NCBI GenBank assembly: GCA_031414595.1
Contig: JANNVX010000018.1
Span: 64,001-128,000 of the forward strand
DNA length: 64,000 nt
DNA from: Deinococcales bacterium
GTDB lineage: Bacteria; Deinococcota; Deinococci; Deinococcales; JAAFIG01
Direction of reading: 5' to 3'
Shown here: in pieces, positions 1 through 64,000 of the stretch
Numbering within the stretch: the first letter of the stretch is position 1
How the letters are laid out: every line of letters starts with the position of its first letter
Translations under genes and position numbers: made by a program
Notes under the pieces: model-generated
The model's database searches: none
What the model saw: only the letters and a program-made list of their open reading frames with translations
What the model was told of the DNA's origin: nothing

Positions 1-1139
1 CGCTTTAACCACTTGGTCAGCATTCCACTGATTGCCCCAACCCGAGCTAAAATTTTTCGGGGGTTCTGGGCTGGCTCGAGCGGTTCTAGGACTCGAGGAG
101 TTGTGAGCGGAGATTTTTGCACCACGCCATTTTGTTCATCCAGACTTTTAATCGAAAATTCTTTACGACTTTTAATGTCCACCAAGCCAAGTTCATGCAG
201 CACATGCTGGGCGGTTTGCGGACGGTCAGAAACGCGCTCCTCGAGCATATAATCGAGGGTACTCGAGAATTTTTCGCTGATTTCTGGGTTGATTCGTGTG
301 ACCGGCACAAGCCTTGCACCTTTGCGCCGTTCTAAAGCGCTGGGCGGCGGTACACCTGTGATGGCTTCGTAAAAGGTTGCCCCCAGACTGTAAATATCGG
401 TGTACGGTCCAAATTTGGCTTCTGAGGCATACTGCTCGAGTGGTGCATACGCTGGGGTCACAACCCGATGCGAAATTCGCACACTATCTCGAGGGGCAAA
501 TTCGGCGGCACTGCCAAAATCTATTAGCACGGGTTCGCCAGCCACAATCATGATGTTGCTGGGTTTAATATCGCGGTGCAGTAAGTCACGCTCATGTAAA
601 TCAAACAAGCACTCGAGTAGCGGCACAAGTAAACGTTTGGCGCTTTTTTCGGATAATTTACCTTGGAGGATGCGTTGTTCTAAAGTTTCGCCCTCGAGCA
701 TTTCCATTGCCATATACGCCGTGCCGAGTTCTTCCCAAGTCTCGAGAACCGTCACGGCGGCAGGGTGGCGAATCACACGGATGGTATCGGCTTCGATTTC
801 AAAGCGGGTGGTCAGGGTGCGTAAACTTCTGACTTCTCCAGCTTTTGGCAGTACATAACCAGTGCTGTTGTCGCGGGTCACTAAGCCATCTGGAAAAAGT
901 TCTTTAATTGCCACGTACTCGCGCCGAGAATTGTCGAATGCTCGGTAAGTGATGCCAAAACCACCGCGTCCAATGACTGCCAAAATTTGGTATTGACCAT
1001 TTTTTAGACTCTGACCAGCAGGCAATTCATCACTGATGGTGCTTGAATTCTGAATTTGTAAAAACGATGTCCCACAAACATGGCAAACAGTTGCCTCGGC
1101 GGGATTATCGGCATAACAAATCGGACAATTCTGGCTCAT
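1..1139 (-). CDS. Ser/Thr protein kinase with N-terminal zinc ribbon (partial, runs off window start)
   Basis: Not in the ORF track because there is no stop in the window. Manual translation from ATG 1139 gives MSQNCPICYADNPAEATVCHVCG (CxxC..CxxC), GRGGFGITY, VAIKE, HRDIKPSN, IDFGSA, TPAYAPLEQY and TDIYSLG. Confidence 0.92.
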   Translation of the reverse strand, partial: MSQNCPICYADNPAEATVCHVCGTSFLQIQNSSTISDELPAGQSLKNGQYQILAVIGRGGFGITYRAFDNSRREYVAIKELFPDGLVTRDNSTGYVLPKAGEVRSLRTLTTRFEIEADTIRVIRHPAAVTVLETWEELGTAYMAMEMLEGETLEQRILQGKLSEKSAKRLLVPLLECLFDLHERDLLHRDIKPSNIMIVAGEPVLIDFGSAAEFAPRDSVRISHRVVTPAYAPLEQYASEAKFGPYTDIYSLGATFYEAITGVPPPSALERRKGARLVPVTRINPEISEKFSSTLDYMLEERVSDRPQTAQHVLHELGLVDIKSRKEFSIKSLDEQNGVVQKSPLTTPRVLEPLEPAQNPRKILARVGAISGMLTKWLK

Positions 1140-1244
1140 GGATTGATGCGTCTCTCGAGACTGATTGTATGTTTTTATGACGGGCAGTAATGACCCAATC
1201 AAAAACGGGACTCGAGTCACAGCATCATTGTTCTAAAGCTGTAA

Positions 1245-1269
1245 TAATCCGACTGGGTTACTCGGAAAT
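1245..1269 (+). promoter_or_regulatory. Inverted-repeat operator resembling an Rrf2/IscR type-1 box
   Basis: TAATCCGACT-GGGTT-ACTCGGAAAT abuts the start codon of a Fe3+-type ABC ATPase. The regulator identity is inferred. Confidence 0.4.
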
Positions 1270-2289: not shown

Positions 2290-2291
2290 TC

Positions 2292-2324
2292 TTTTTACCC
2301 TTTAACCTTTTAACCCTTTTCCCT
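2292..2324. repeat. Degenerate short tandem (about 7-mer) repeat, TTTAACC/TTTACCC-like
   Basis: ttttaccc tttaacc ttttaaccc ttttccct lies just upstream of the asnS -10 box. Confidence 0.5.
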
Positions 2325-2336
2325 TAGAATCTCTCC

Positions 2337-3674
2337 ATGCGAGTTTTTATTTCCGATATTGGGCAACACGCCGAAAACACCGTCACCATTAAAGGCTGGT
2401 TGTCCGATAAAAGCGGCAAAGGCAAATTGCAATTCTTAAAACTGCGTGATGGTACTGGTTTTATTCAAGGCACAGTTTTTATTGGCGATGTCTCCGAAGA
2501 AACTTTTGAACTGGCAAAACGCCTTCCACAAGAATGCAGTCTCGAGGTGACTGGAATTGTCAGGGCAGATGCTCGAGCGCCAAGCGGATTTGAACTGGCG
2601 GTGCGCGATATAAAAGTCGTGGCATTGCCCACCGAGGAATACCCGATAACCCCCAAAGAACACGGCACAGAATTTTTATTAGATAACCGCCATTTGCATT
2701 TGCGACACCGTAAACCTTGGGCTGCTTTGCGGGTTCGAGACACGATTAAACGTGCCATTAACGATTTTTTTCATGACCGTGGCTTTATTCAGTTCGATAG
2801 CCCATTTTTTATGCCAACCGCCGTTGAAGGCACAAGCAATTTATTCGAGATTAACTTGTTTGACGAAGAAAAAGCCTATTTAAGCCAATCTGGACAGTTA
2901 TATGCCGAAGCTGGCGCAATGGCACACGGTAAGGTCTACACTTTTGGACCGACCTTTCGCGCCGAAAAAAGTAAAACCCGACGGCACTTGCTCGAGTTTT
3001 GGATGATTGAACCCGAAGTTGCCTACAACGACTGGGAGGACAATATGCGCCTCCAAGAAGATTTTGTGAGTTACCTTGTCGGGCGCTCACTCGAGGAGCG
3101 AAAAACCGAACTCGAGATTCTCGAGCGAGACACAACTAAGCTCGAGCCAAGCGCGGCTGGCAATTTCCCACGGGTTAGCTACACCGAAGCTATTGAAATG
3201 ATTAGTAAAGCCATCTCGAGCGGTAACTTACCCGAAAATGTCGCAGCCGACACCCAGCCTGTGATTTGGGGCGATGATTTTGGTGCGCCACACGAAACGA
3301 TTGTGGGTTCGTACTTTGACCGTCCGGTGATGATTCACAGTTATCCAGCCGCGATTAAAGCCTTCTATATGCAGCCACAAGCCCATGACCCACGCCTGGC
3401 AGCCTGCAACGACATGATTGCCCCAGAGGGTTATGGCGAGATTATTGGCGGGTCTGAGCGCATTCATGATTACGACTTACTAAAGAGTCGCATTCTCGAG
3501 CATGACTTACCACTCGAGCCATTTGATTGGTACTTGGATTTACGCAAATACGGTTCTGTGCCGCATAGTGGTTTTGGGCTTGGTCTCGAGCGCACCGTGG
3601 CTTGGATTTGTGGTGTGCCGCATTTACGCGAAGTGATTCCGTTCCCACGAATGCTAACGCGGATGAAGCCGTAA
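2337..3674 (+). CDS. asnS: Asparagine--tRNA ligase
   Basis: OB-fold N-terminus (FLKLRDGTG), [39 protein letters not shown] and [17 protein letters not shown] lies 6 nt before the ATG. Confidence 0.97.
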
Positions 3675-3820
3675 TCCCTGGACTTTTTGTGTAAAGCCCA
3701 ATCGTTTATTGCTGTGGAAGTGAGTCTTGATAAATTCAGGAGTGTCTTTCAAGACATGCTAAATCTTGGGGTGAAGGAAGCCTAAAATATTTCCGAACTA
3801 GTGTTGTATCAAAAGCCGAT

Positions 3821-4771: not shown

Positions 4772-4795
4772 TGGTTAAGAGTATAGCCTATGCTT

Positions 4796-5437: not shown

Positions 5438-5535
5438 GTGACCTCGATTGTTAGCATAACTCATTGTACTTGCTGTACAGACCAAAATTGCAAACGGTGA
5501 CACAAATCACTTTTGGCTCGAGTAGACTGGTTGGC

Positions 5536-6228: not shown

Positions 6229-6239
6229 CGTGACTTGTA

Positions 6240-9407: not shown

Positions 9408-10434
9408 ACGTGAGTTCGGGTTAAGCCATCGTCAATTCTGTCGGCATGAACTGCAAACTTGGTTTTTTCTCTTGATGACAATAAGCAATTAAGCCACAAA
9501 TGAGGTTCGCTAAGAAATTCATTGGACTACGATGCCTTGAATGCTCAATTTGACTAATGTTTTTACACTGGTCAATAATCGTTTCAACAATACTTCGTTT
9601 ACGAAGAAATAATGCGTCTTCATTTGGCATTGGTTGCTCACATTTCATATTCTTTTTCAATCGAGTAATCAATTGAATACCATGCTCTTCAATCAATTTC
9701 TGAAATAATGCTTTAGAAATATAACCTTTATCACCAAAAATCTTATGAAAGATATTCGAGAATGGATTCTCGATCATTTCCAGTAATCCTTTTCGGTCAT
9801 CAAGATTACCTGCACTCAAGTCAAGCCAGATAATCTCACCAGCATCATTGAATAATAAGTGCAACTTAAATCCGAAGAACCAACCCACACTGGTTTTACC
9901 ACGAGCCGCTAGACCAGCAAAGACTTTGTGGTTATGAATTCGACGATTGTGACAAACACTGAGTTTGGTACTATCCACAAAACTGATTCCCGAACAACGT
10001 CCTAAATGAGCAAATAGATAGGCTGATAAAGGCAATACTGAACGAGGTATCCACTCAACGAAACGATTATAACTTGGTAAAGTTGGGAACTCGCTTCTTA
10101 GGTAAACACAAACGTGTCGAGTGTAAAACCATTTGAAATCACGATAGCGTTGCTGATGGAATAAAATTAGGATAGTCATGATTTCGCTACCTGTCATACT
10201 TAAAGCCCGTTCTCGAGTACCAGTGGTGCTTGGTAAGGCGTTTTTAGGGTGGGTTTTGATGAATTCTTGGTTGAAATCATCGACTTCGCAGAATAATTCG
10301 AGTAAAGTCATACTGTCCTCCTTGTTGTTTTGTTGCAATTACAGCGTACAGGAGGACGCTTCTTATGTTGATTTATTCTATGAGAACAGAATGCAGTGGT
10401 GTTTTCTGTTAATACCTTTAACCCGAACTCACGT
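9408..10434 (-). mobile_element. Complete IS982-family insertion sequence
   Basis: Perfect 17-bp IRs ACGTGAGTTCGGGTTAA (9408-9424) and TTAACCCGAACTCACGT (10418-10434), 7-bp direct repeat TAATTTA at 9401-9407 and 10435-10441, and a single transposase. Confidence 0.93.
9421..10311 (-). CDS. IS982-family DDE transposase
   Basis: PSYNRFV, FVDSTKLSVCHNRRI, GWFFGFKLHL, FGDKGYIS, RKRSIVETI and IEHSRHRS. SD AAGGAGG precedes ATG 10311. Confidence 0.95.
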   Translation of the reverse strand: MTLLELFCEVDDFNQEFIKTHPKNALPSTTGTRERALSMTGSEIMTILILFHQQRYRDFKWFYTRHVCVYLRSEFPTLPSYNRFVEWIPRSVLPLSAYLFAHLGRCSGISFVDSTKLSVCHNRRIHNHKVFAGLAARGKTSVGWFFGFKLHLLFNDAGEIIWLDLSAGNLDDRKGLLEMIENPFSNIFHKIFGDKGYISKALFQKLIEEHGIQLITRLKKNMKCEQPMPNEDALFLRKRSIVETIIDQCKNISQIEHSRHRSPMNFLANLICGLIAYCHQEKKPSLQFMPTELTMA

Positions 10435-10438
10435 TAAT

Positions 10439-13400
10439 TTAATTCTGGTCTGCCAGTTCTTGCCACCCAATGTCAAATAAAATAGTCTTGGCTCGTCCGG
10501 GGTTGTTAATGCGATGAATAAATGGTTTTGAACCTTCTAAAATTTCCACAACGTATAACCAATAATTCTTGGTCTTGCGTTCTCTAATTGCTGTTCTAAA
10601 TTCATTTGCACTCAGACTCACAAATGCCCGTTCTTTCCAAGTGCCTCTTATTGCTTTTAATTCAATCAAACGTTTTTCTCCGCCGCCTTCAGAATAAATA
10701 TCGTACCCATCCCAAGTTTCCCGACAATCCGTAGCCTTTCTTTTTTGCGAAAGCTCAAAATCTACAACTGCATCAAAACCGATTTGTTCAGTCTCTTTGT
10801 TGGTGATGTAACGCTGCATCCCGTCTTCACTAGGTCTTGTATCGCTCGATGCTCGTACTTTAGTTCTGTCACTTACAGGTCGGCGCTTAGAACTTCTTTT
10901 TGACTGTGGTTTTGATTGAGGCTGCGATGATGAATTTGGCGGGGGTGTTTTTGGCATTCTGCGGGCTGTTTGATTTGGTTCTTGTGACTTAGAACTTGCC
11001 GAGCTTCGGTTTTGACTTTGGGTATTGTTAATCTGTGGAATTGGCAGTTCGGGCGGGAATGGCTGAGGTGGTGGTTTTGTCTCGACACTTTGCGAAAAGG
11101 AGGATACTTTTCCTGCATCTTGAGTAGCCGAAGGTTCTGGTTTTTCGTCTTGCGAATTGTCTATGGGGAAGTCATCTTCATTTATATCTTTATCTTCGGA
11201 ATTTTCGCCCTGTAAATCATCTACAGAATCGGTGTCTAAATCTTCAACTTCTGGTTCTTGAGAGACTGTGGCTGGAATACCTTCATTTTGCTCTGATTCT
11301 TTAAGTACAAAAAATTCAGCTTCTTCAAGTTCGGAATCTGTAATACTTTCATTAAAAACTCGGACAAACCAATTTCTATTATGTGGTTCGATGTCAAATA
11401 TGTGACACAAAATTTCATGTATTTCTATGTCTTCATTGGTCAAAAATAATTCATTTATTTTTTCATCAAAAAAGTATTTTACACGGCTTATTTCTCGCTT
11501 GTATTCGTTGCCATAGTTCACTTCCCATCTCACTTTAATCTCTGAGACCATACTAGCTTTTAATCTTTGATATATTTTTTTATACTCTAGTAGTTTAGTT
11601 AGTTTATTTAGTATCCGAAATGCAATTTTTTCTTTTTCAATTAATTTTTCTTTGAGTTTTTCATGTACAACCAATTTTTCTTGATTATCAGTTGGAATTC
11701 TTATGACTGTTAGTACATCAGTAAGTTTTTTAATTCCTAATTTTTCATATAAAGTTGGAAATTCTGATGTTTCAAGTAACCTTAACTGCGATTTATCAAT
11801 CTCAAGATGATCGGCTTTTACTTTACTTAAGTCATCAATAATGACTTCTTCTGGCAACCACCAACAGTTTGGTTCATTTTTGAACTTGTGATAAATTATC
11901 TTTGCGCTTCTTAGGGTAGCGAGAACATCAAGAACTTTCGAGTCTAAACTCGGTTCTGCCAAAATGTGGTTTAATTTTCCTAAACAATAATCATAAACAG
12001 TCCTATCTTCTGTTGTAAATTTTTTACTCTGAGCAATTTCAAGAACCACATCTCGGTAATCTTGATAGCCAGGTGGGTTTTTGATGCCCAACATTTCAAT
12101 TAAACGCTTTAGTTCTTTATGTTGCGGTCTTAATTGATGACGTTTTTCTCCAAGGTTGTGATTATCTAAAAAACTCTGGTTCGCAGTAAAACCATCAAAA
12201 AGTGGCATCAGTTTCAATTCTGATACAACATTACCCAAGTCTCCTTCTGAAAATCGATTTAAGCGCTGAAGAAATTTCAACTGCAATTTTTCATCTCTAA
12301 TTATTTTTTTGATATGGTCAACAAAATATCTAATCTTAATCTCCGCAAAACGCAGACGGCTAAAAATAGCTTTGGGAATCTCAAAATCTGTAAACGAATA
12401 TCCGCTTGGAGTACCATACTCCATAAAAACTTTCTCGGTCATACAAAATAGGTTTTTAGGTGCAAACCACTGATTATGGTTTTCATCTGGTAGCCACGGA
12501 AAATCAAATATTTTCCAGAAATCAGGATTTTTCACTTCTTCCCGTTTTTCGAGGAATTCGAGAATTTTAATCCGTTTTTCTCGAGTTTTTGTACTTATTG
12601 GAGTGGCTAATTGGCTTTTCAATTGGTCAGCCACATCTTGTACTGTTGGTGATTTTCGCACCCCTAATTTTTCTAGGAGACTGCAAGCTACTTGGTCAAA
12701 ATCTGAATGGATTTTTGTGTATTCTGAGCCGAATAAATCATTCATGACTTCATTTGGAAACCAAACTTCATTGGGTTTTCTCCAGTTTTCATCGGTGCAA
12801 AACACTATTTCAACTGATTTCCAGGCTTCCATTTTTACTGAATCTATATGTTTTGACAAATGTGTAAAAATGTGGCGCTTCTCGGTTTTATCAGATAAGG
12901 ACTTAAAATAATTCAAAAGTTGGTCATTAAAATAAATATCTGGCTTTAGCGGTTTGATCTGGATTGTTTCAAGCCAAGTGGTGTACTTTTTGGCAAATTC
13001 TTTCTGAAGTAAAACTTTTACCTCAAATGGGTCATCAAATTCTTCACCAATAACAACTTCATTATGTTTATGGAAGTTTCCAAACGCGTCAGGGAAAATA
13101 CATAGCTCTTTAAGCATGAGAAACTCTGGTATCTTGGGGTCAATCCTACAGCTTAACCTAGAAATTAAGTTATCTAATCTCCAATTATCCTTGTATTTAA
13201 TTTCAAAATCTTTAATATCTTGCGAACTTGATTTGGCAATTCTTTCTAATGTCTTATCTAATCTTATTCTGCAATGTGTCTCAATATATTTCTTTAGTCT
13301 TTCTGGAAGCAAACTGTACCACTCTAGGTTAATAATTTCGTCCAACCTGAACCAAGGATAGTAAGCTGCTTGGCTGTCTGCATCAAGATAAAACAAATTG

Positions 13401-14932
13401 CTTATTTTTGTACAAGTTCCATTCTGAGAAATGCAAAAATGGAGTTCTGACAAAGTTTTACAACTGTTTTCATCAATATCGTTTTCAAATAGCTTTAGTG
13501 TTTCTAAAAAAGGCTTAATAGAATCAAAAGTAACATAATGCTCTCTTTTTTCGGTCAATATAGATTTGAGGGCATCAAGGTAATGATTCAACCTAAATTT
13601 CACGACGTTAAAAGACGTTAAAATTGTTTTGTATTCCTCGAGAGAGGGGTGAGGAAAATGCCAATCTTGTTGCTCTCTGATGGCGTGCTTAACAACATCG
13701 GAAATTTTATCGTTAAACGTAAAAACCTTGCTGGAATTTTCCCATTTTTCGGATTCGGTATAAATCCAATTTCCTTGCGAACTAATCTCTTTACATTTTT
13801 CCCAGTATTGAAGCACAAATTTTTTTAAGTATCTTTCGGATTTGGTATCTGCATCCTTAACTCGAGAAAAAAATATATACACTGATAAATGGCTCGAATT
13901 ATTTTTCAGATACTCGAGCATTGGTAGAATTAACCCCTGAATATCTTTTAATACACAGGAATTCCACTCTTCGTTGTTAGTCCCTGATTTCATTTCCAAT
14001 CTTTTCCGACTTAGCTCAGGATAAAATCCAGCATTGATATGAAATGGTAAACCTGTTGCTTCATCTGTTGGCAAAAAAACAAAAATCTTTCCTTCAAAAT
14101 GATCCATTTTTCTTGGCATGACAACAGATATATTGGTATCGCGCCCTAGTTCTTTATCTTGTTTCAGTTCTTCCGCCTGAAGCCATGCTTGAGAATTAGC
14201 AGAAATAGGCTGGATACCATAAAAATACTCTTCTGCTGTTCCTGGCTGCTCAACAATGGTGACATTTTTTTCATGAACCGTCTTCTGAATGCGAATTTGT
14301 TCTACCGAATTTCTGTATAAAATAAAGGTGGTCAAATGGCGTAAAAAGAAAATGACATGGGGCATTATTTCTTTTGCGGTGTCAAAATAGCTTTGGATGT
14401 CGGATTTTTCAATCTTTTGAAGCCCCAATCCCTTTCGGGTTTCAGAATATTCAAATGCCCAAGGCAATTCAAAAGTGGTTAAAAATCGTTGTGTAACTGG
14501 ATTTTCGATTGGATAACTTCTTCCTTGATTTTCTCCTTCTACTTTTGGAACCAATTCCCATTTCTCTTGTCTGGAATGAACAAAGGCTGTGTCGCAAAAT
14601 TGATAAACAGATACGAACCCAATACCAAATTTTCCAATGGCAGTGGAGTCTTCTCTTTTATAGCCACTGGCAATTTCTCGAATTTTTTTAAGATGTGTTG
14701 CTTGCATTTCCACATTATTTCCAACGACGATTTTATCGTCTTGAACATCGAAATGAAATTTTGTAGCATAATTTGCAGCGTCATCCTCAGTATCCTTGGC
14801 ATCATCAGCATTTTGGAGCAACTCGTGCAGCATTGCATCAAAACCGCTCATTCCCGATGATAGACTTATGCTAATCAAGTTAAGAGTATTAGCGCCATAT
14901 TCTTCGGACTTACCACGTTTTTCATTGCTCAT
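10439..14932 (-). CDS. Large sacsin-like GHKL ATPase with C-terminal DUF3883 (NOV-C) PD-(D/E)xK-like domain
   Basis: N-terminal ELLQNADDA, IGKFGIGFVSVY, FVFLPT..TGLPFHINAGF; acidic and Pro/Ser-rich linker; C-terminal GYDIYS..LIELKA..LSANE..YWLYVV. The DNA is AT-rich. Confidence 0.85.
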   Translation of the reverse strand: MSNEKRGKSEEYGANTLNLISISLSSGMSGFDAMLHELLQNADDAKDTEDDAANYATKFHFDVQDDKIVVGNNVEMQATHLKKIREIASGYKREDSTAIGKFGIGFVSVYQFCDTAFVHSRQEKWELVPKVEGENQGRSYPIENPVTQRFLTTFELPWAFEYSETRKGLGLQKIEKSDIQSYFDTAKEIMPHVIFFLRHLTTFILYRNSVEQIRIQKTVHEKNVTIVEQPGTAEEYFYGIQPISANSQAWLQAEELKQDKELGRDTNISVVMPRKMDHFEGKIFVFLPTDEATGLPFHINAGFYPELSRKRLEMKSGTNNEEWNSCVLKDIQGLILPMLEYLKNNSSHLSVYIFFSRVKDADTKSERYLKKFVLQYWEKCKEISSQGNWIYTESEKWENSSKVFTFNDKISDVVKHAIREQQDWHFPHPSLEEYKTILTSFNVVKFRLNHYLDALKSILTEKREHYVTFDSIKPFLETLKLFENDIDENSCKTLSELHFCISQNGTCTKISNLFYLDADSQAAYYPWFRLDEIINLEWYSLLPERLKKYIETHCRIRLDKTLERIAKSSSQDIKDFEIKYKDNWRLDNLISRLSCRIDPKIPEFLMLKELCIFPDAFGNFHKHNEVVIGEEFDDPFEVKVLLQKEFAKKYTTWLETIQIKPLKPDIYFNDQLLNYFKSLSDKTEKRHIFTHLSKHIDSVKMEAWKSVEIVFCTDENWRKPNEVWFPNEVMNDLFGSEYTKIHSDFDQVACSLLEKLGVRKSPTVQDVADQLKSQLATPISTKTREKRIKILEFLEKREEVKNPDFWKIFDFPWLPDENHNQWFAPKNLFCMTEKVFMEYGTPSGYSFTDFEIPKAIFSRLRFAEIKIRYFVDHIKKIIRDEKLQLKFLQRLNRFSEGDLGNVVSELKLMPLFDGFTANQSFLDNHNLGEKRHQLRPQHKELKRLIEMLGIKNPPGYQDYRDVVLEIAQSKKFTTEDRTVYDYCLGKLNHILAEPSLDSKVLDVLATLRSAKIIYHKFKNEPNCWWLPEEVIIDDLSKVKADHLEIDKSQLRLLETSEFPTLYEKLGIKKLTDVLTVIRIPTDNQEKLVVHEKLKEKLIEKEKIAFRILNKLTKLLEYKKIYQRLKASMVSEIKVRWEVNYGNEYKREISRVKYFFDEKINELFLTNEDIEIHEILCHIFDIEPHNRNWFVRVFNESITDSELEEAEFFVLKESEQNEGIPATVSQEPEVEDLDTDSVDDLQGENSEDKDINEDDFPIDNSQDEKPEPSATQDAGKVSSFSQSVETKPPPQPFPPELPIPQINNTQSQNRSSASSKSQEPNQTARRMPKTPPPNSSSQPQSKPQSKRSSKRRPVSDRTKVRASSDTRPSEDGMQRYITNKETEQIGFDAVVDFELSQKRKATDCRETWDGYDIYSEGGGEKRLIELKAIRGTWKERAFVSLSANEFRTAIRERKTKNYWLYVVEILEGSKPFIHRINNPGRAKTILFDIGWQELADQN

Positions 14933-15058
14933 TGTCAAAGCCTCTTTGCTACAGAATTAAAACTCGATATGGCAGACAGCATAGCATCCAAAAACAAAAA
15001 TGCGCCCAAGCCATAAGCTCGAGCAACCCGATTTTCTACGTTGCTGTATACTCCACGC

Positions 15059-15301
15059 ATGGTTGCTTACCCACCAGAACTCGAGGATTTACCGGAATTA
15101 TTTAGCTTAGACGATTCTTCTGTGCATTTGGCTTCATTGGCTGCCATCTCGAGACTCCAAGCCAAGGGCATTGATATTTTTTATTTTGACGAAGATTTAG
15201 CTGTGCATATCCTAGAGAAACCTTCTGGACAACGTTTCGAGATTCGCTACACTGGCGAACCTAAAGCTGCTTTTGAAATTATCCGTGCCTTAGATGCTTA
15301 A
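15059..15301 (+). CDS. Small acidic protein, putative antitoxin/partner of the Zeta-like ATPase
   Basis: TATACT lies 6 nt before ATG 15059, and the stop overlaps the start of the next gene. Confidence 0.6.
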   Translation: MVAYPPELEDLPELFSLDDSSVHLASLAAISRLQAKGIDIFYFDEDLAVHILEKPSGQRFEIRYTGEPKAAFEIIRALDA

Positions 15302-18894: not shown

Positions 18895-19007
18895 CATATG
18901 GATAGAATAGCGAATGTAGGGGTTATCTATTCGCATCAGTTTGACAAAATTTACAGTACAGGACAACAAAACCTAATCCTCAAATTGTATTGCCCATATC
19001 GCGTTCC

Positions 19008-19244
19008 AACCCTCACCCAACTCGCTTAGGCTCGTTACCCTCATCCCGCTAAACAGCGCGGGAGAGGGTTGTTCGGTTTGTTTTGCCGCTTTATATTTGA
19101 GACTTGAAAACCAAAAAATACTGTTTCAAACAAGTTTTTTGAGGCAGACAAAAGTCAAATCCCAAATCCCAAACCCCAAACCCTCCCCAAGCGAAGCGTG
19201 GTTTGGGGGAGGGTGGCGAGCTTCAAGCGAGTCGGGAGAGGGGC
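19008..19244. repeat. Inverted pair of CCCTC..GGGAGAGGG REP-like palindromes with an AAA(T/C)CCC heptamer array
   Basis: 19008-19070 and 19181-19244 are related in opposite orientation (ccctcacccaactcgcttaggctcgttaccctc versus rc ccctctcccgactcgcttgaagctcgccaccctc). Four 7-mers lie at 19157-19184. Confidence 0.7.
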
Positions 19245-19396
19245 TGACTGACTGTGGTTCTATGCGTGCTGAAAGGTTTTTGTTCTCAAATTTATACCTG
19301 TGGGAGGGGCTTGTTCCTTCCTTTTGAAGGCTTTAGTCTGTAATCTATTGCTGTTTTCATGTAGAATTTTTGCGTTCTGACCAGTAGAATCTAGCT

Positions 19397-22339
19397 GTGG
19401 TTGGGTCTAAGGTGCTTCATTATCAAATCATTCGTGAAATTGGCACGGGTGGGATGGGCATTGTTTATGAAGCCTTTGACACATGGCTAGAACGTCCTGT
19501 TGCCCTTAAATTCCTGCACGAATCGCAGCGCCTAAGTTTGGCTGCCTTACGCGCCTTTGCCAGAGAAGCCAAAATTGCAGCCCAGCTTGACCATTCACAT
19601 ATTGGCACGATTTTTGCCTTAGAGCGCAGTGAAGAAGCGGTGTTTCTGGCAATGGCGTATTACCAAGGGGAATCGCTGACTGAGCGCTTAAAACGCGGGG
19701 CATTGCCGCTTGAAGAAGCCAAGCGTATTGCTTTAGAAATCGCCAAAGGGCTTGAACACGCCCATTTGCATGGTGTGGTTCACCGCGACATTAAACCAAG
19801 CAATGTTTTTTTGGCGAGCCAACCAGACGGCTCGAGCAGCACGAAAATCCTTGACTTTGGCTTGTCCAAACTTGGGAGTCGTTCACCTGCCAAAAGTCAA
19901 GCTGTGGTTGGAACACCCGCCTATATGTCGCCAGAACAACTGGACGGCAAAGCCTCGAGTAAAACCGACCTTTGGGCTTGGGGAACTGTGGTTTATGAAA
20001 TGCTGTCTGGGGTTTCGCCGTTTGAGCGTGAAAGCATGACTGGTATTTTCCAAGCTATTTTGTTGCAAGAGCCAATACCACTCGAGACTCGAGTCCCAGA
20101 TGCGCCCGAGGTACTGCTTTCCTTGGTGCGTCAGTGCTTACGCAAAAACCCAGAAGAGCGCCCACTCGATGCCAGTGAGTTAATCCGTGCCTTACAACCT
20201 ATCCGTGTGCTTTTGGCTCGAGTCAATCAGGATCATTTGCCAATGCCGACCACGGTTTTTATTGGACGAGAACACGAACTACTTGAACTTGAACAACAAT
20301 TTGTGGGGACTCGGCTTTTAACCATTGCTGCGCCCGGTGGCATGGGTAAAACCCGTTTAGCGCTTGAGTATGCCCGCTTGCACCGCGCAGAATTTGCCGA
20401 CGGGGTACATTTTATTGACTTAGCCCGACTTCAGGATGCGACCTTAATTCCAAATGCAATCCTTGAAGGTTTGGGCTTAAACACCGACGAGAACCCCAAG
20501 GAACGGCTTTTAAGCGAATTGTCTGAAAAAAACGCCTTATTATTGCTTGATAATTTTGAACACTTAACCCACGGTTCTAGCTTGGTGGGCGAATTACTGC
20601 AAAAAACCACTGGCTTAAAAGTGATTGTCACTTCAAGGGAAACGCTTGGATTTAGAAATGAAAAAGTCTATGCGCTCCAAGGTCTGCGCCTTCCTAGTCA
20701 CACCGATTTTGTGGGTAACGATGCGGTGATGCTTTTTACCCGAGTTGCCCAGCGTTTTGATGCCCATTTTAACCTTGACCCAAATAAGGATTTAGTCGTT
20801 TTTCAACGTATCCTAAGCGCAGTCTATGCCATGCCGCTTGGTTTAGAACTGGCTTCGAGTTGGTTGCGCTTGCTGTCTTTAGAAGAAATTGCCGACGAAC
20901 TCGAGCGCAACCTCGATTTTTTGGCAACCGAATCGCCAGATATTCCCGAGCGTCACCGCAGTATGGCGGCTGTTTTTACCTCAAGTTGGGAATTATTAAG
21001 CAGCCAGGAACAACAAAAATTAGCCCAACTGACGGTTTTTCGTGGCGGTTTTGACCGAGAACTGGCCGATGTGGTTTGCGGTATTGACATGCTGAGTTTG
21101 CAACGCTTGGTCAGTAAATCCTTACTCTATAAAGTCGAGCAGCAATACCGTTTTCATGAAATGATTCGCCAGCAAGCCACTTTGTATTTGCCCGAACCCG
21201 AGCGCCAGCGTTTACTCGAGAATTTGGTGGATGAATGCCTGAGCATTGTCAAAGATTGGTATGAAAAACGCCAAAATGGAAAAAACAACACCGCTATTTT
21301 TGCCAAATTGTTAAAACTGACCGATCAAATCCGCCTTGCCCTCGAGTGGTGTTTGGCGTATCACCCCAAGAAATTACTCGAGTTCTTTTTAATTCTTGGG
21401 CAATACTGGTCTATTATTAGCAATTTTCAAGAAGCCCTGCATTGGCGTGAGCAAGTTCGTCAAACCAACGACTTAAGCCCAGAAGAAGATGTTGCCCTCG
21501 AGACGCTGCATTTGCGTTGGTTATTTATGACTGGGCATTATAAAAAAGCCCTGCGTTTGGCTGCACTTTACTTACCTAAAGCCGAACAACTGCCAGACCG
21601 AACTTACGAAGCCCAACTGAACCTCTTGGTTAGTCAAACCCACTTAAACACCAACCAGTTTGAAATTGCCAAGGTTCACGCCAGAAAAGCCGTCTTTTTA
21701 TATCAAAAAATCGGTGTGTACTTTGGTTTTATGGCAGCCATCAACATGATTGGGGTGCTGCACAACTGCATGAACAACCTTAAAAAAGCCCGCTCGAGCC
21801 TAAAATTTGTGATTCGATTAACTGGTGCTAGTCAAGACGAACGCAGCTTATCTGTTTCGACCCTAAATCTTGCTACGGTGGATTTGGTCGAGACAAACAC
21901 GGTTCATGATATTGCCGCTTTCACCCATTCGCTCGAGTACCTGCACCGAATCAATGATTTGGTCAACACTGCCGAATGTTACGCGATTCTTGGTTATTAT
22001 CACATCACCCAAGCCGATTATGCTGCCGCCAGAAATGCTTTTGGCGAAGCCTTACTCATCTCGAGTGGCTACCAAAATCAAATTGAATGCAGCGTGCAAA
22101 TTTTATTTCTTGGTTTTGTGGCAGCCCTACAAGGCAAAACCAAACGAAGCAGCGAACTGCTGCACTTATCGCACTGTATCAACCAAAGTTTTGCCAGTGG
22201 CTATTATGCCTTTGAAACCTTTGCCAAGCGAATTGCCGAAAACCCTGAAATTGCTGCGCTTTGGGCAGATGCCCAGCAAAAATCTAAACCCAGTCATTTT
22301 TCGTTTGAAAATGCAATCAAATTTGCTTTGCAACCCTAG
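19397..22339 (+). CDS. Ser/Thr kinase - STAND NTPase - TPR protein, copy 2
   Basis: Same motifs and collinear with copy 1. TAGAAT lies 6 nt before the GTG. Confidence 0.92.
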   Translation: MVGSKVLHYQIIREIGTGGMGIVYEAFDTWLERPVALKFLHESQRLSLAALRAFAREAKIAAQLDHSHIGTIFALERSEEAVFLAMAYYQGESLTERLKRGALPLEEAKRIALEIAKGLEHAHLHGVVHRDIKPSNVFLASQPDGSSSTKILDFGLSKLGSRSPAKSQAVVGTPAYMSPEQLDGKASSKTDLWAWGTVVYEMLSGVSPFERESMTGIFQAILLQEPIPLETRVPDAPEVLLSLVRQCLRKNPEERPLDASELIRALQPIRVLLARVNQDHLPMPTTVFIGREHELLELEQQFVGTRLLTIAAPGGMGKTRLALEYARLHRAEFADGVHFIDLARLQDATLIPNAILEGLGLNTDENPKERLLSELSEKNALLLLDNFEHLTHGSSLVGELLQKTTGLKVIVTSRETLGFRNEKVYALQGLRLPSHTDFVGNDAVMLFTRVAQRFDAHFNLDPNKDLVVFQRILSAVYAMPLGLELASSWLRLLSLEEIADELERNLDFLATESPDIPERHRSMAAVFTSSWELLSSQEQQKLAQLTVFRGGFDRELADVVCGIDMLSLQRLVSKSLLYKVEQQYRFHEMIRQQATLYLPEPERQRLLENLVDECLSIVKDWYEKRQNGKNNTAIFAKLLKLTDQIRLALEWCLAYHPKKLLEFFLILGQYWSIISNFQEALHWREQVRQTNDLSPEEDVALETLHLRWLFMTGHYKKALRLAALYLPKAEQLPDRTYEAQLNLLVSQTHLNTNQFEIAKVHARKAVFLYQKIGVYFGFMAAINMIGVLHNCMNNLKKARSSLKFVIRLTGASQDERSLSVSTLNLATVDLVETNTVHDIAAFTHSLEYLHRINDLVNTAECYAILGYYHITQADYAAARNAFGEALLISSGYQNQIECSVQILFLGFVAALQGKTKRSSELLHLSHCINQSFASGYYAFETFAKRIAENPEIAALWADAQQKSKPSHFSFENAIKFALQP

Positions 22340-37637: not shown

Positions 37638-37741
37638 ACCTTAAGACTCAAAACCGATTCTCGAGTACGAACCGTATCGTAACTCGCTTTAGAAAATACG
37701 CCCCGAAACCCTTCGCCCTCATTCTATTAGGAGACTCAATC

Positions 37742-39007: not shown

Positions 39008-39063
39008 ACCGAACCTAGGGCGGTGTCAAAGCCGCCCATTTATGCTCGAGAACGGAGGTTGTC

Positions 39064-39948
39064 ATGCAGGGAACGTTGCGCGATTGGAAAGCCGTTCTGG
39101 TTTTTGTCGGTCCAGCTTTGCTGATTTACACCATCATTTTACTTGTTCCGATTGTCTGGTCGGTTGGTTATACTTTTTTTTCAGGTTCACCGTTGGCTGG
39201 CTTTAAGTTTGTGGGTTTGGATAATTATGGACAAATTTGGCAGGATCAAAAATTCAAGGAAGCCCTTTGGTTTGGTACAAAATATGCGGCGGTGGTCAGT
39301 CTTGGACAGGTAATTTTAGGTTTGTTACTGGCGATGCTGTATATGTTTTATTTGCGTAAATCCTCGGTTTTGATTCGCACCCTCGTTTTTTTGCCTGTGG
39401 TCTTACCAACTGTAGCAAGCGCCCAGATGTTCGCTAAACTTTTTGCGATAGCACCGCAGTACGGGCTGGTCAATAGCCTGCTACAAGGTCTTGGTCTCGA
39501 GTCTTGGGTGCAGGGCTTTCTTGGACAGGCAAACAGTGCTTTTTGGGTGATTGCCGCCATGGACATTTGGAAAGCCATGGGCTTTTATGCAGTGCTGCTG
39601 TTTGCTGGTTTGGTTGAAATCCCCGAAGAAGTCTTAGAGGCAGCCCGAATAGATGGAGCGCAGGGTTGGACGTTATCAAGGTTTGTGGTCATGCCGTTGC
39701 TGATGCCAATTATCATCTCGAGCCTGATTTTTAGCTTAAATGGCACACTCAAGGTTTTTGATTCCATTCTGGCTTTAACGGGTGGCGGACCGGGTACAAC
39801 CACCATGCCCTTAACGCTATACATGTATAAAGTCTCGTTTACCTATAACGATTATGGGTACGGCTCTACTGTGGCATTGACCTTGGCGGTACAGTGCGTA
39901 CTGGTGACGCTGTTGGTACTCTGGCGGTCAAGAAAAGGACAAAGCTAA
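39064..39948 (+). CDS. Sugar ABC transporter permease
   Basis: FVGLDNY and EAA motif EAARIDGA. Confidence 0.93.
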   Translation: MQGTLRDWKAVLVFVGPALLIYTIILLVPIVWSVGYTFFSGSPLAGFKFVGLDNYGQIWQDQKFKEALWFGTKYAAVVSLGQVILGLLLAMLYMFYLRKSSVLIRTLVFLPVVLPTVASAQMFAKLFAIAPQYGLVNSLLQGLGLESWVQGFLGQANSAFWVIAAMDIWKAMGFYAVLLFAGLVEIPEEVLEAARIDGAQGWTLSRFVVMPLLMPIIISSLIFSLNGTLKVFDSILALTGGGPGTTTMPLTLYMYKVSFTYNDYGYGSTVALTLAVQCVLVTLLVLWRSRKGQS

Positions 39949-61724: not shown

Positions 61725-63040
61725 GGTTTCACCACGCTGACTATTGCTCCTGGCTCGAGCGCGGCTGGAACAGGAAAAACCACCACTGCCCCGCTTGGAA
61801 TCCCCGAAACCGCAACTTGACCGGCACTTTCGGACAGCACCCGAACGGCTGCCCGTCCTGCAGTGTTATTTTTAACAAGGTAGACAAAGTAATTCTGCCC
61901 TTCGGCACGAAGCGCCGCCGATGGCAAAATCACCCCTTTAGCCAGTCGTAAATTGTACTCGAGGCGAATGGTCGTACCAAGTTTCAAACCCGTTAAATTT
62001 TGATTTGGTAAAATTCTGCCACGCAAGCGCACCAAACGATTCTCCGATGGCACTCGAGCCTCCTCCGAAACTTTTGCAGCAACTCGTTTGCCCTGCACGA
62101 CAACACTGAGCCGTGTTCCTGTTTTTAGTAAATCGGCATCAAAAGCTGGCACTTGAAAAACCAATTTCAGGCTACTCGGGTCAATCAAACGCAGCACTTT
62201 AGTACCTGCGGTGGCAAATTCACCTGTTTCTACAAAAACCTCGGCAATTTCACCCGTAAAAGGTGCTTTGACACTGGCTCGAGCCACATCTGCTTGCAAC
62301 TGCACCACCCGATTTTGTGCCTGCGCCACTGCAATACGTTGGCTTTCTAAGCCCTCAGAAGTTGCCCGACCAATCCGCCCCAAAGCCGCCCGTGCTGTCT
62401 CGAGTTCGGTCTGGGTATTTTTTAGTGCGGCTTGCGAATTTTGCAATTCGACTAAGGAAACTCCACCCAAGGCATAAATTTTTTGATTGGCTGTCACAAT
62501 TCGGGCTGCATTATCCACTGCCACCAGACTCGAGGACAAGCGCAAACGTGCCTGACTTGCATCCTCTGGATTCTGGCGTGTTGCCGAACGCCACGCCACT
62601 TGTGCCGAAGTGAGGGCTAAACGCGCATCTTCAAGGGCATTTTGGGTTTGCGCCGACTCGAGCAGCAAAATGGTCTCGCCAGCTTTGACCAAAGCACCAG
62701 CTCGTTTCAGGATTTTTAAGACCCGCCCAGAAGCCTCCGCAACCACGTTAGCATCAGTAACTGCAACCAAGTTCGCACTGACGCTTCTCGAAGTGCTAAG
62801 AACACCCTCAGTGCTTTTGATCACCTGAACAGCAGTCCGTTCAATAACAGGCTGAGAGGTAATAGGTTGAGCCGCTTTGGTTTCCTCGGCGCAGGACAAG
62901 AGGCTCGAGGACAGAAAAAGCGCGACTAGGAGTTTTGGCAAAAGCGCGGGTGTGGCAGGGCGATGACTACGGAAACTCATGTTATTCATGCGTAGGGGCG
63001 AACCTTGTGTTCGCCCCATAACAGATGATTCATCGGTCAT
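61721..63040 (-). CDS. RND membrane fusion protein (lipoprotein); start uncertain
   Basis: LLSC lipobox, lipoyl halves G.V..G and KAPFTG, LPSAAL. Confidence 0.9.
   Translation of the reverse strand: MTDESSVMGRTQGSPLRMNNMSFRSHRPATPALLPKLLVALFLSSSLLSCAEETKAAQPITSQPVIERTAVQVIKSTEGVLSTSRSVSANLVAVTDANVVAEASGRVLKILKRAGALVKAGETILLLESAQTQNALEDARLALTSAQVAWRSATRQNPEDASQARLRLSSSLVAVDNAARIVTANQKIYALGGVSLVELQNSQAALKNTQTELETARAALGRIGRATSEGLESQRIAVAQAQNRVVQLQADVARASVKAPFTGEIAEVFVETGEFATAGTKVLRLIDPSSLKLVFQVPAFDADLLKTGTRLSVVVQGKRVAAKVSEEARVPSENRLVRLRGRILPNQNLTGLKLGTTIRLEYNLRLAKGVILPSAALRAEGQNYFVYLVKNNTAGRAAVRVLSESAGQVAVSGIPSGAVVVFPVPAALEPGAIVSVVKP
62992..63017 (+). repeat. GTAG-type REP element
   Basis: GTA-GGGGCGAAC-CTTGT-GTTCGCCCC. 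Confidence 0.7.
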
Positions 63041-64000
63041 GACCCTTTCACCAATCCTGTCACGTCAACCCCTGCGGCTAGGCTCAAGCCTGATATAGCC
63101 CGCAAGTACCCATTTTCGGCTCGAGCCACCGATTGTTTGGCTTGTAACTCGGTCAATTGGGTTGCCTCGAGTTGAACTTTTGAGATTAACCCTTGTTTCA
63201 GGCGCTCCTCGTCATTTTTGGTGTTACGGGTGGCGACGGTTAAGTTCTGCTTGGCGACCCCAATGCCTTCGGCAGCCGCATTGACCGTGCGAATGGTGTC
63301 TCGAAAGGTATTGACGGCGCGGCGTTTAGTGCTGGCAAGCGCACGGCGGGCATTCTCGAGTCCCGATGCAGCCTCGCGTTTTTGTTGTTCTGGGGTGTAA
63401 TCGTTGTCGGTAATTTTGACGTTTAGCTCGGCAAATTCTACCGCTTGGATGGCTTGAACCAGTTGTGGTGCGCGGTCTTCAAGGTTCTGCTCGAGTTCGG
63501 CAATGTTTAATTTTACCGCCCTATACGCTGGTGCTTCGGCGATATTGACTTCTGCCCCACGTGCTAAACCCAACACCCGCGCAAGGCGTGCCATGATCAC
63601 AGGACGGGAGGCTTTGGTGTCTGACAATTGTTGTTGCACACCTGCTACATCGGTTTCGGCGCGTTGGACATCTACAGGTGTGGCAGTTCGGGCTTGCAGT
63701 CGGGCTTTGGTGATTTCAAGGGTGCGGCTGACGAGTTTTAATTGTGCCTCGAGAACTTCTACTGCGTCTTTGGCTTCGGCTAAATTAAGAAATTCACTGA
63801 CAGTTTCGTTGCTTACGTCTAGTCGCACACTGGCGAGTTGGGCGGTACTTATTTCTGCGCTGTGCTTGGCTTGTAATAAATCGGTAATCAGGGCGGTTGG
63901 GTCGGCATTGCGAGCGGCGAATGTTCGATTGGCTAAAACCAAGGCATTCTCGGCATTTTTAATATCGCTATTGGCTTCCAGTGCCATAACCACCCCACGT
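63037..64000 (-). CDS. TolC-family outer-membrane efflux protein (5' end outside window)
   Basis: Two OEP-like helical repeats (ARLQARTATPVDV, RLKQGLISKVQL) upstream of the MFP and RND genes. Confidence 0.8.
   Translation of the reverse strand, partial: RGVVMALEANSDIKNAENALVLANRTFAARNADPTALITDLLQAKHSAEISTAQLASVRLDVSNETVSEFLNLAEAKDAVEVLEAQLKLVSRTLEITKARLQARTATPVDVQRAETDVAGVQQQLSDTKASRPVIMARLARVLGLARGAEVNIAEAPAYRAVKLNIAELEQNLEDRAPQLVQAIQAVEFAELNVKITDNDYTPEQQKREAASGLENARRALASTKRRAVNTFRDTIRTVNAAAEGIGVAKQNLTVATRNTKNDEERLKQGLISKVQLEATQLTELQAKQSVARAENGYLRAISGLSLAAGVDVTGLVKGS

Follow-up and report, generated by a model that had tools for sequence, protein, structure and literature searches.

The stretch considered here, 64,000 nucleotides from the genome of a Deinococcales bacterium (the window, by which the whole stretch at its full length is meant), carries the palindromic hexamer CTCGAG throughout, and a reading made from its letters alone (the sequence-only reading) had proposed this word to be a genome signature resembling the highly iterated palindrome HIP1 (GCGATCGC) of cyanobacteria. 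Over positions 1..64000, 337 copies were counted (5.3/kb), as compared to a mean of 7.03 and a maximum of 13 copies in 100 dinucleotide-preserving shuffles, none of which reached 337 (0/100). The expectation from base composition is 13.4 copies (0.21/kb), in agreement with the approximately 0.2/kb assumed beforehand, and the initial hand counts of nine sites in bases 1-1000 and nine in 2941-3600 turned out to be exact. The gene from which these sites were exemplified, asnS (asparaginyl-tRNA synthetase, 2337..3674, + strand), holds 11 of them, nine residing in codon phase 0 and reading as Leu-Glu, one in phase 1 and one in phase 2. A 15-residue peptide of this protein (3108..3152, + strand) was quoted correctly and its coding sequence comprises three CTCGAG (3111, 3120 and 3141), while the strings ISSSL and ARV quoted alongside do not occur in asnS as written; what comes closest is AISSG for the former (phase-2 site 3215) and ARA for the latter (phase-1 site 2572).

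At genome scale the proposal was borne out and the signature was found to be larger than noted, as the genome (4,488,778 bp in 120 contigs, with a guanine plus cytosine (GC) content of 47.2%) harbors 23,235 copies of CTCGAG (5.18/kb, approximately one per 190 bases) as compared to 972 expected. When hexamer counts were set against Markov models, a check proposed together with the original claim, the enrichment held: the observed-to-expected ratio (o/e) of CTCGAG amounted to 23.9, 43.6, 18.1, 3.8 and 1.16 for model orders 0, 1, 2, 3 and 4, respectively, whereby the low values at orders 3 and 4 result from the fact that these models contain sub-words of CTCGAG itself. CTCGAG is the most frequent hexamer of the genome and ranks first by o/e under orders 0-2, and 69% of all genomic TCGA is located within it. 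The HIP1 word itself is represented by 0 copies, and GAGCTC, the reversed word, by 6. Being a short palindrome with a genome-wide excess of at least one order of magnitude, CTCGAG hence shows the abundance that characterizes the HIP class. Nearly all other short palindromes of this genome are extremely avoided, with 33 of the 64 six-base palindromes falling below 0.1 of expectation; GGCC occurs 152 times where 13,951 copies are expected, GGGCCC 0 times, TGCGCA twice and CGATCG three times, and the other palindromes built around a TCGA core are almost gone (ATCGAT 0.07, GTCGAC 0.03 and TTCGAA 0.02 o/e). Palindromes containing AATT escape this avoidance (CAATTG 2.15, AAATTT 2.07, GAATTC 1.30 and AATT 1.64 o/e).

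The suggestion of a bias at the level of DNA and not of protein was supported by a shuffle carried out with 3,628 genes predicted from open reading frames (ORFs; 3.89 Mb), in which synonymous codons were exchanged within each gene among positions of the same amino acid, a procedure that retains all proteins, all dipeptides and the per-gene codon usage. Such a codon- and dipeptide-preserving shuffle had been singled out in advance as the decisive challenge to the signature, and the enrichment persists under it, with 20,127 coding copies observed and 1,902-2,017 obtained in 10 shuffles (approximately 10x). This null is conservative, since the CTCGAG sites have already raised the share of the codons on which it draws. 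The use of all three codon phases was confirmed genome-wide, with 11,995, 3,920 and 4,212 sites observed in phases 0, 1 and 2 versus approximately 1,300, 390 and 260 after shuffling, i.e., a roughly 9-16x excess in each of them. Codon choice was found to depend on context in the same sense: CTC makes up 85.6% of the Leu codons that precede GAG versus 7.5% of those whose next codon is not GAx, and GAG makes up 92.6% of the Glu codons following CTC versus 20% following non-Leu codons. Furthermore, Leu-Glu, 60% of which is spelled by CTCGAG, ranks at the top of all 400 dipeptides (o/e 2.23), whereas Glu-Leu is found at 0.98 o/e, and the computed surplus of approximately 11,000 Leu-Glu pairs is close to the 11,995 phase-0 sites. 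With a density of 5.16/kb in coding and 5.28/kb in intergenic DNA, CTCGAG thus occupies all frames as well as non-coding DNA, as is typical of the HIP class, and neither protein sequence nor codon usage explains it.

As a consequence of these controls, the idea that the excess is a by-product of amino acid, codon or dinucleotide usage, or else an artefact of assembly or library preparation, is considered refuted and was left with a practically negligible likelihood. The by-product idea draws on high-GC relatives in which CTC and GAG are preferred codons and CTCGAG is about as abundant as GAGCTC (genus g9), but in the genome studied here the word exceeds the protein- and codon-preserving shuffle 10x and the dinucleotide (order-1) model 44x, its intergenic density equals that in genes, and GAGCTC is limited to its 6 genomic copies. 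With regard to artefacts, the other ground on which the sequence-only reading would have been refuted, contigs assembled from individual sequencing runs reproduce window positions 1-6000 with 0 differences in two runs (depth 34-43), whereby these two per-run assemblies may derive from the source samples of the metagenome-assembled genome (MAG) itself. The signature was also recovered from 19 of 19 independent assemblies of the family, and its sites originate by substitution and not by insertion. Strains related to this genome also occur in a second study.

Analysis of the sites themselves revealed the hexamer to be a strict unit, as flanking positions up to 15 bases on each side carry at most 0.04 bits per position at 2,715 intergenic and 19,601 coding sites. 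Extended palindromes are, if anything, avoided (CCTCGAGG is found in 178 genomic copies), and perfect stems flanking CTCGAG are no longer than expected by chance in intergenic and coding DNA alike. The idea of hairpin centers or extended palindromes was rejected for these reasons, and the remark that sites sit in hairpin centers and promoters found no support, the intergenic density being the same as the coding one. An origin of sites by insertion or as footprints was likewise dismissed, since alignment with close relatives places 0 of 189 and 1 of 225 sites opposite a gap. Placement is near-Poisson, with a variance-to-mean ratio of 0.89 at 500 bp, 1.01 at 1 kb and 1.86 at 10 kb, the rise at 10 kb being accompanied by a correlation with GC content of 0.3-0.4, and the codon period is the only periodicity seen when short-range spacing and dispersion were examined. 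With respect to spacing, a distance of 7 is favored (101 cases genome-wide, represented in the window by the CTCGAGNCTCGAG doublet at 20081..20093 and by a second doublet at 23056-23068), distances of 8-20 are under-represented, and a distance of 6 never occurs, as it would create the avoided word GAGCTC. Super-clusters were not found genome-wide, the maximum being 9 sites per 300 bp, with 4 windows of at least 8 sites versus approximately 5 expected, and origin-like clusters of the Nocardia type were accordingly rejected. The transition neighbors TTCGAG, CCCGAG and CTTGAG are not depleted (o/e 1.07-1.23). As the 16S rRNA gene is missing from the assembly of this MAG, tRNA genes were inspected for stable RNA. 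The 68 tRNA genes (5.3 kb) contain 7 sites, as compared to 27.5 calculated from the genome density and approximately one from base composition. Five of the seven site-bearing tRNA genes form a tight array (Ser, Ser, Cys, Thr, Glu) within 3 kb of contig C56 (144-2945), with CTCGAG in each of them.

The largest gap between CTCGAG sites in the 4.5-Mb genome spans 4.9 kb, and just four gaps extend over at least 2.5 kb, all of them islands of accessory genes with 32-39% GC. Encoded in them are a polysaccharide cassette with genes for a glycosyltransferase, a flippase and an acetyltransferase, a clostripain-family peptidase, a group of small ORFs located downstream of a 3,646-aa ORF (one of the small ORFs with SUKH immunity domains), and a block of uncharacterized small ORFs. 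Across genes, density rises 12x from 0.5/kb at 28-32% GC to 6.5/kb at 52-56% GC, while composition alone was computed to yield a rise of approximately 4.5x over the same range. The word hence builds up in DNA of long residence, and few copies are found where DNA is mobile or was acquired recently. Within the window, this genome-wide scarcity in low-GC accessory DNA is matched by a site-poor segment of 36-38% GC with approximately 1 site/kb (9421..14938, - strand), made up of a DDE transposase of an insertion sequence (IS) and a 1,499-aa protein with sacsin and NOV_C domains. A copy of a dispersed repeat of approximately 370 bp (~18900..19350) holds 0 CTCGAG. The 1,499-aa protein (10439-14938), which possesses a sacsin-type domain at its N-terminus and a NOV_C domain at its C-terminus and adjoins the IS transposase, may be a defense-type gene carried as mobile cargo. 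The repeat (18,930-19,300) has dozens of partial copies in congeners with 72-96% identity, most of them in G006, and looks like a mobile element of the miniature inverted-repeat transposable element type. A third stretch, which encodes a ROK regulator/kinase and two sugar ABC-transporter genes (36441..39948, + strand), shows 1.6-2.3 sites/kb despite its normal GC content of 47-49%.

The signature extends far beyond the genome in which it was noticed. Relatives of the AsnS protein encoded in the window derive from MAGs titled Deinococcales, Trueperaceae or Deinococcota bacterium, and 19 loci of this clade (GC 44-60%) hold 2.6-8.2 sites/kb, as compared to 0.1-0.7 in three outgroup loci. All 19 genomes of the family, an uncultured group within the Deinococcales, contain, with five genera represented and one genome being a single contig, 12,028-35,442 copies of CTCGAG (roughly 4.3-6.8/kb, based on rounded genome sizes) and 0-568 copies of GAGCTC. 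The family MAGs are 57-94% complete, so that absences of genes from them are weak evidence. Among 121 genomes of the order, raw CTCGAG counts are lowest in genus g7, with 40-942 copies per genome, and reach approximately 3/kb in g13, g22 and g24. As a high GC content favors the codon pair CTC-GAG by itself, a codon-aware test was applied to the other genera, using 12-60 kb from each of seven other genomes, and the ratio of observed to codon-shuffled counts, which is 10.7 for the window, was 3.6 in g13, 2.8 in both g22 and g6, 2.6 in g24, 2.5 in g21 and 0.72 in g9, with 0 sites observed and 4.1 expected in g7. The window has a Leu-Glu o/e of 2.10, the five moderately enriched genera lie at 1.15-1.77, and g9 and g7 at 1.20 and 0.74, respectively. 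The codon-aware ratios therefore describe a graded trait, with saturation in the family, moderate enrichment in several genera, no enrichment in one further genus and avoidance in another. Viral contigs were scanned for three closely spaced sites, yielding at least 126 stretches, and the DNA was read for 80 loci, which belong mostly to high-GC contigs in which GAGCTC is common too; five picked viral records carry 0.55-3.7 CTCGAG/kb and none could be linked to this family. Two high-GC viral contigs (L117 of G125 and L102 of G124) show CTCGAG in strong preference to GAGCTC, with 100 versus 1 copies in 36.9 kb and 18 versus 1 in 4.8 kb, and may represent phages of a moderately enriched host lineage.

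Comparison with congeners demonstrated that sites are kept far more often than control hexamers. Over the first 20 kb, 63 of 70 sites are kept in G004 (93% DNA identity; controls 68%) and 69 of 81 in G006 (91%; controls 62%), and at larger distance the values are 53 of 68 in G002 (79% identity; controls 26%), 46 of 57 in G007 (78%; controls 27%) and 33 of 50 in G003 (76%; controls 22%). At approximately 78% identity, 66-81% of the sites are hence retained as compared to 22-27% of the controls, and over 60 kb retention amounts to 162 of 189 sites (86%) in G004 and 197 of 224 (88%) in G006, versus 68% and 66% for controls. Conservation above background between genomes, a further hallmark of the HIP class, includes synonymous positions, as third codon positions are identical at 334 of 360 (92.8%) and 382 of 410 (93.2%) positions within sites and at 83.7% and 83.0% outside of them (p = 7e-7 and 3e-9). 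When the same codons were compared inside and outside of sites, CTC had an identical third base in 92-93% of cases inside and in 70-79% outside, and GAG in 94% and 81%, respectively. Intergenic sites follow the same trend without reaching significance (8 of 9 and 15 of 19 kept versus 72% and 66%). Within asnS, 10-13 of 16 family orthologues share many of the sites at one and the same codon, several of these sites coinciding with replacements toward Leu-Glu; Leu-Glu is found at alignment column 741 in 16 of 16 family members as compared to Thr-Glu in three of three outgroups, and at column 861 Leu-Glu stands against Leu-Lys.

For loss and gain of sites, changes were polarized by majority rule among G000, G004 and G006, using 22,274 three-way aligned bases from one window. 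Ancestral sites were lost in 30 of 357 cases (8.4%), as compared to 21.7% at baseline rates, and hence 2.6x more slowly. Gains were found to be in excess for each class of precursor, with 6 observed versus 1.52 expected from words one change away, 4 versus 0.19 from words two changes away and 5 versus 0.012 from words three changes away. Twelve control target words gave gain ratios of 0.27-1.49, and 250 random control words, by which the inflation of multi-step change through ordinary clustering can be gauged, yielded 0.84, 1.73 and 8.9 as pooled ratios for the three classes; after calibration with the latter, 15 gains stand against approximately 1.7 expected (computed, approximately 9x). Given a tree of roughly ((G000,G004),G006), 11 of the 15 gains fall on safely polarized branches. 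Where site hexamers differ between close genomes they tend to change as a unit, with at least three of the six bases altered in 10 of 44 and 10 of 51 cases versus 6.9% and 7.5% of the control hexamers that differ (p = 7e-4 and 4e-3), and many of these multi-base differences consist of synonymous changes in both codons at once, e.g., CTC-GAG to CTT-GAA. Around multi-base gains the rate of private differences is elevated (3.6x within 15 bp on either side, 2.2x within 50 bp and 1.65x within 150 bp) and exceeds the one around ordinary clustered changes (2.3x, 1.6x and 1.3x at the same distances). Many gains thus ride on short divergent tracts, as would be expected of recombinational import more than of a change limited to the six bases, and the idea of a very short patch limited to the hexamer was not supported, as the flanks are divergent too.

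Taken together, it is firmly shown that CTCGAG is the highly iterated palindrome of this lineage, DNA-level, hexamer-specific, family-wide and ancient, and that its sites are still actively maintained and created by a process strong enough to reshape protein sequence. That the signature is real, maintained and HIP-like is, as a bare claim, regarded as practically certain.

The enzymes that could write, read or propagate such a word were searched for in the window, in the genome as a whole and in related genomes. No DNA methylase was detected in the window, where among 42 ORFs scanned the sole methyltransferase-like match is a TrmB-type tRNA methyltransferase domain; the sequence-only reading was correct in stating that no candidate enzyme is encoded there. 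The genome is rich in methyltransferases (MTases), with nine matches of the Eco57I/TaqI type (PF07669), five C5 enzymes, eight N6_N4 matches above the curated cut-off plus one weaker match, and one D12 enzyme, and this richness agrees with the extreme avoidance of nearly every other palindrome. Neighborhoods of PF02384-type proteins (approximately 500-690 aa) were scanned in five genomes, and those of G000 (two), G018 (three) and G011 stand beside hsdS and/or hsdR, by which most of them are predicted to be Type I HsdM subunits, while a stand-alone PF02384-type enzyme of 499 aa in G003 and a protein of 485 aa in G001 have neither neighbor. The 307-aa ORFs that adjoin the G017 and G003 enzymes are mutually unrelated. 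A candidate MTase of 663 aa (contig C4) is present in three of 19 family genomes. Another candidate of 559 aa (contig C89) is the best PF07669 match, and its closest solved structures are M.BseCI and CamA. It was found in four of the 19 family genomes and, across the order, in 19 of 121, elsewhere being embedded mostly within open frames of 1,100-1,400 aa. A 574-aa protein of G017 is a further candidate of the gamma class to which this one belongs. A stand-alone TaqI-like group with Eco57I and TaqI_C domains and housekeeping-gene flanks was identified in g13, g14, g20, g23 and g27 and in broken form in g24; at 48% identity or above it is found in nine of 121 order genomes and in 0 of this family.

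With regard to partners of such enzymes, canonical Vsr was found in 0 of 19 family genomes, the control having matched E. coli, B. subtilis and Caulobacter, so that the pairing of Vsr with a conserved C5 methylase on which a Dcm/Vsr-type drive depends was found in none of the 19. The MutH family is present in two of 19 genomes, each time beside a Dam-type (D12) MTase, and a MutH conserved together with a methylase, as in a Dam/MutH-type process, is hence lacking across the 19 genomes. In the genome studied here the D12 methylase directly adjoins a 210-aa protein of the MutH/Sau3AI family (contig C1:27108-28231), and the same pair is found in the congener G004. This pair is most likely a GATC restriction-modification (R-M) system, which would explain the depletion of GATC to 0.14 of expectation in the genome. 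The XhoI nuclease model (PF04555) gave no match in the genome, and it matched none of 14 control genomes either. ComEC is encoded in 18 of 19 family genomes, which shows uptake capacity only.

Methylation of the very same word has been documented for cultured members of the phylum. Blow et al. 2016 (PMC4752239) list M.Mru1279II of Meiothermus ruber as a Type II N6-methyladenine (m6A) enzyme for cTcgAg with 99.5% methylation, M.Mch9957IV of M. chliarophilus with the same m6A motif and 94.1%, and the Eco57I-type M.Mhy14884I of Marinithermus hydrothermalis with 94.6%, the respective table rows naming no partner nuclease, while M. silvanus has no CTCGAG enzyme listed there. These enzymes of Blow et al. 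share the word with the family studied here, three of them come from its phylum and they methylate their sites near-completely. The stand-alone TaqI-like group may correspond to this published CTCGAG enzyme family. The same report describes a conserved orphan CTCGAG methylase in Nocardia, whose motif clusters near dnaA; in its account this is clustering and not genome-wide hyper-abundance, whereas the present genome lacks local clusters. The suggestion of the sequence-only reading that an orphan XhoI-type MTase creates sites by way of repair is thus backed in one part, as cultured phylum members do methylate CTCGAG with no nuclease partner listed, but not in the other, as no conserved MTase was found, Vsr and MutH are absent or rare and transition neighbors are undepleted; for this family, such an enzyme is possible.

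HIP1 is the closest likeness. According to Xu et al. 2018 it is 15-300x over-represented, occurs within and between ORFs and is conserved, this conservation being read as selection, and shows periodic spacing over long ranges (10-90 kb). Elhai 2015 reports a density of approximately 1/kb, links HIP sites to DNA methylases, with a methylase for the word wherever it is abundant, proposes a methylation-based repair model and describes cyanobacterial lineages that use an alternate palindrome. Abstracts on HIP1 (Rodriguez-Cruz et al. 2026 and a 2024 preprint) draw a link to natural transformation and between them name two cognate methylases and a methylation-dependent enhancement of natural transformation. 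Like HIP1, CTCGAG is a short GC-rich palindrome placed within and between ORFs and conserved between genomes. The two differ in length (8 versus 6 bp), in phylum (cyanobacteria versus Deinococcota) and in density (approximately 1/kb versus 5.2/kb, i.e., approximately 5x), and, unlike HIP1, CTCGAG measurably alters proteome dipeptides and has no conserved cognate methylase found in the family. A literature search, which did not cover bioRxiv preprint supplements, yielded no report of CTCGAG hyper-abundance in prokaryotes, the nearest matches being honeybee intergenic motifs and Halobacteria specificity tables.

The uptake signal sequences (USS) of Haemophilus and the DNA uptake sequences (DUS) of Neisseria are asymmetric, 9-12 bases long, possess structured flanks and occur at approximately 1/kb; they are found genome-wide in all frames, evenly spread, rare in recent acquisitions and split into family dialects, and they are explained by molecular drive. 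CTCGAG, in contrast, is a bare 6-bp palindrome with flanks of at most 0.04 bits per position at 5/kb, and an extended asymmetric motif with informative flanks was not found around it. The orphan adenine methylase CtsM of Campylobacter marks a short palindrome-like word, RAATTY (m6A), and in transformation, uptake prefers DNA so marked. RAATTY is abundant mainly through the AT-rich composition of the Campylobacter genome, whereas CTCGAG stands 24x above composition. Dcm and Vsr of E. coli (CCWGG) provide an example of methylase-linked repair that enriches its own site, with a small effect; unlike there, Vsr was found in none of the 19 family genomes, no C5 methylase is conserved and transition precursors are undepleted.

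As the best composite reading it is suggested that CTCGAG acts as a HIP-like self mark, spread by recombination-coupled drive and probably adenine-methylated, a reading that is held tentatively and somewhat short of an even chance. It assumes a strict 6-bp word of the kind that is read by R-M-type proteins, raised by a directional process on DNA to its density in the resident DNA of the family, which would serve as a mark of self in DNA uptake, recombination or repair. Alleles bearing CTCGAG would be preferentially taken up or retained and would thereby spread by recombination-coupled molecular drive until coding constraint balances the process, the mark itself probably being CTCG-m6A-G, as in the cultured Meiothermus and Marinithermus. 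Drive was considered the more economical reading because, among approximately 23,000 sites, the value of a single one is too small for ordinary selection to account for gains at nine times the expected number. A process coupled to recombination was favored because accessory DNA holds few sites, gains are surrounded by divergent tracts and ComEC is encoded, and a reader or writer of the R-M type together with a methyl mark was suggested by the bare 6-bp palindrome and by the proven methylation in cultured relatives.

Several observations weigh against this composite reading, most of them concerning the postulated methylase. No MTase orthologue group common to the family was found, the all-versus-all comparison of 40 MTase ORFs from five genomes yielding patchy pairs. 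Among the 19 family genomes, strong matches to the Eco57I-type MTases are scattered and G008 has none, the C5 enzymes are non-orthologous between genomes with no match in G001, and the N6_N4 MTases have no match in the complete single-contig genome G018. D12 is matched in 18 of 19 genomes, distributed over several groups, with weak or broken matches in G003, G001 and G009 and none in G010. The family holds only distant relatives of the TaqI-like group (25-35% identity, four of 19 genomes), and g13 carries that group in three of eight genomes, yet all eight hold 1.4-3.0 sites/kb, from which it follows that present-day carriage of the TaqI-like group does not track CTCGAG enrichment. MTase specificities are moreover not readable from sequence. 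Concerning uptake, known uptake sequences are longer, asymmetric and equipped with structured flanks where CTCGAG is a bare palindrome, and ComEC is widespread in bacteria and says nothing on specificity. Direct selection would likewise be expected to conserve sites and to let new ones arise fast. Finally, the gain and loss counts rest on a 22-kb three-way alignment of a single window, and more distant congeners carry the site at several of the gain positions, so that some of the gains may be parallel losses or imports.

The lack of a conserved methylase in the family keeps three other ideas alive, namely a reader that is no methylase, an unmethylated uptake signal and conversion by repair. 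The strongest rival is direct selection for a chromosome-level function, exerted through a family-conserved DNA binder other than a methyltransferase, e.g., in nucleoid organization as proposed for HIP1, and this was judged unlikely, though to be taken seriously. It would account for conservation beyond matched controls with synonymous positions included, an argument made likewise for HIP1 by Xu et al. 2018, and for a coverage so uniform that no gap in 4.5 Mb exceeds 4.9 kb, and it has no need of the conserved MTase that was not found. Set against this are the minute value of each one of 23,235 sites in the face of an approximately 9x gain rate and thousands of changed amino acid pairs, and a placement which is Poisson-like and not regular (variance/mean 0.89-1.01 up to 1 kb) and devoid of local clusters. 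Conversion by repair, in which a mismatch or very-short-patch system linked to methylation turns near-cognate words or heteroduplexes into the complete, methylated site, would transfer to this lineage the model that Elhai 2015 proposed for HIP sites. It gains from the methylation of CTCGAG in cultured relatives for which no partner nuclease is listed, and from the hexamer changing as a unit, with three or more differences in 10 of 44 and 10 of 51 cases as compared to 7% of controls. The process is nevertheless considered improbable: Vsr was found in none of the 19 genomes, MutH is limited to two of them and likely belongs to a GATC R-M pair, no MTase is conserved, and TTCGAG, CCCGAG and CTTGAG stand at 1.07-1.23 o/e where efficient correction predicts depletion. 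Multi-base gains moreover lie in divergent flanks and not in hexamer-confined patches, and an adenine methylase yields no deamination mismatch on which repair could act.

An unmethylated DNA-uptake signal, whereby a preference of the competence machinery for CTCGAG would suffice in combination with recombination, as has been modelled for the uptake words of Haemophilus and Neisseria, received the same low standing as repair. ComEC in 18 of 19 genomes, the presence of sites in all frames and in non-coding DNA, their even coverage, their scarcity in accessory DNA, the family-wide occurrence with weaker forms in neighboring genera and the gains riding on divergent tracts all suit it, and no conserved MTase is required. 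CTCGAG, however, offers 12 bits with nothing in its flanks, unlike the asymmetric signals of 9-12 bases known at approximately 1/kb; uptake by Thermus and Deinococcus is described as sequence-independent, and we know of no candidate receptor for CTCGAG uptake. Very unlikely is a frozen relic, according to which an ancestral process made the sites and these now decay slowly under coding constraint. Many asnS sites common to 10-13 of 16 genomes across genera and the patchy carriage of MTases would be in line with it, but new sites appear well above baseline on recent branches, synonymous positions within sites are constrained, and intergenic DNA, in which relic sites free of constraint should have decayed, is as dense in sites as coding DNA.

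A bolder variant dispenses with the methyltransferase altogether and assumes that a family-conserved protein reads bare CTCGAG, whose density would tell self from foreign in uptake, recombination or degradation; the reader could be, e.g., a domesticated restriction-enzyme-like or a competence-associated DNA binder. This is regarded as a rather doubtful proposition. If true, CTCGAG would be the first case of a palindromic self word of 6 bp that was driven to saturation, with an effect large enough to double one proteome dipeptide and with graded, lost and inverted states across the Deinococcales. Regardless of the mechanism, the purpose of HIP1 in cyanobacteria has been open for three decades with essentially one natural case at hand, and CTCGAG provides an independent second one, with another word in another phylum, approximately 5x denser and with a measurable cost in protein sequence. 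Its graded states within one order allow for a comparative search for the responsible genes, and the cultured Meiothermus and Marinithermus with proven CTCGAG adenine methylation render the hypotheses testable at the bench. In practical terms, the signature provides a strong marker by which these MAGs can be binned and assigned taxonomically and which flags foreign DNA in them, and it predicts that XhoI either shreds DNA of this family or fails to cut it at all.

Two further observations concern genes of note in this genome and its relatives. The window encodes three Ser/Thr protein kinases (3-1220 and 15294-22339), two of which have a length of approximately 1,000 aa and carry a fusion to AAA ATPase domains, in one case to TPR repeats as well; the genes of these two stand side by side, just downstream of a gene for a zeta-toxin-like kinase (15294-15896). 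In the single-contig family genome G018, a locus (L307, C1:4774032-4778927) encodes a protein of 1,631 aa that combines annexin repeats with an eCIS core domain, an unusual pairing in a bacterium.

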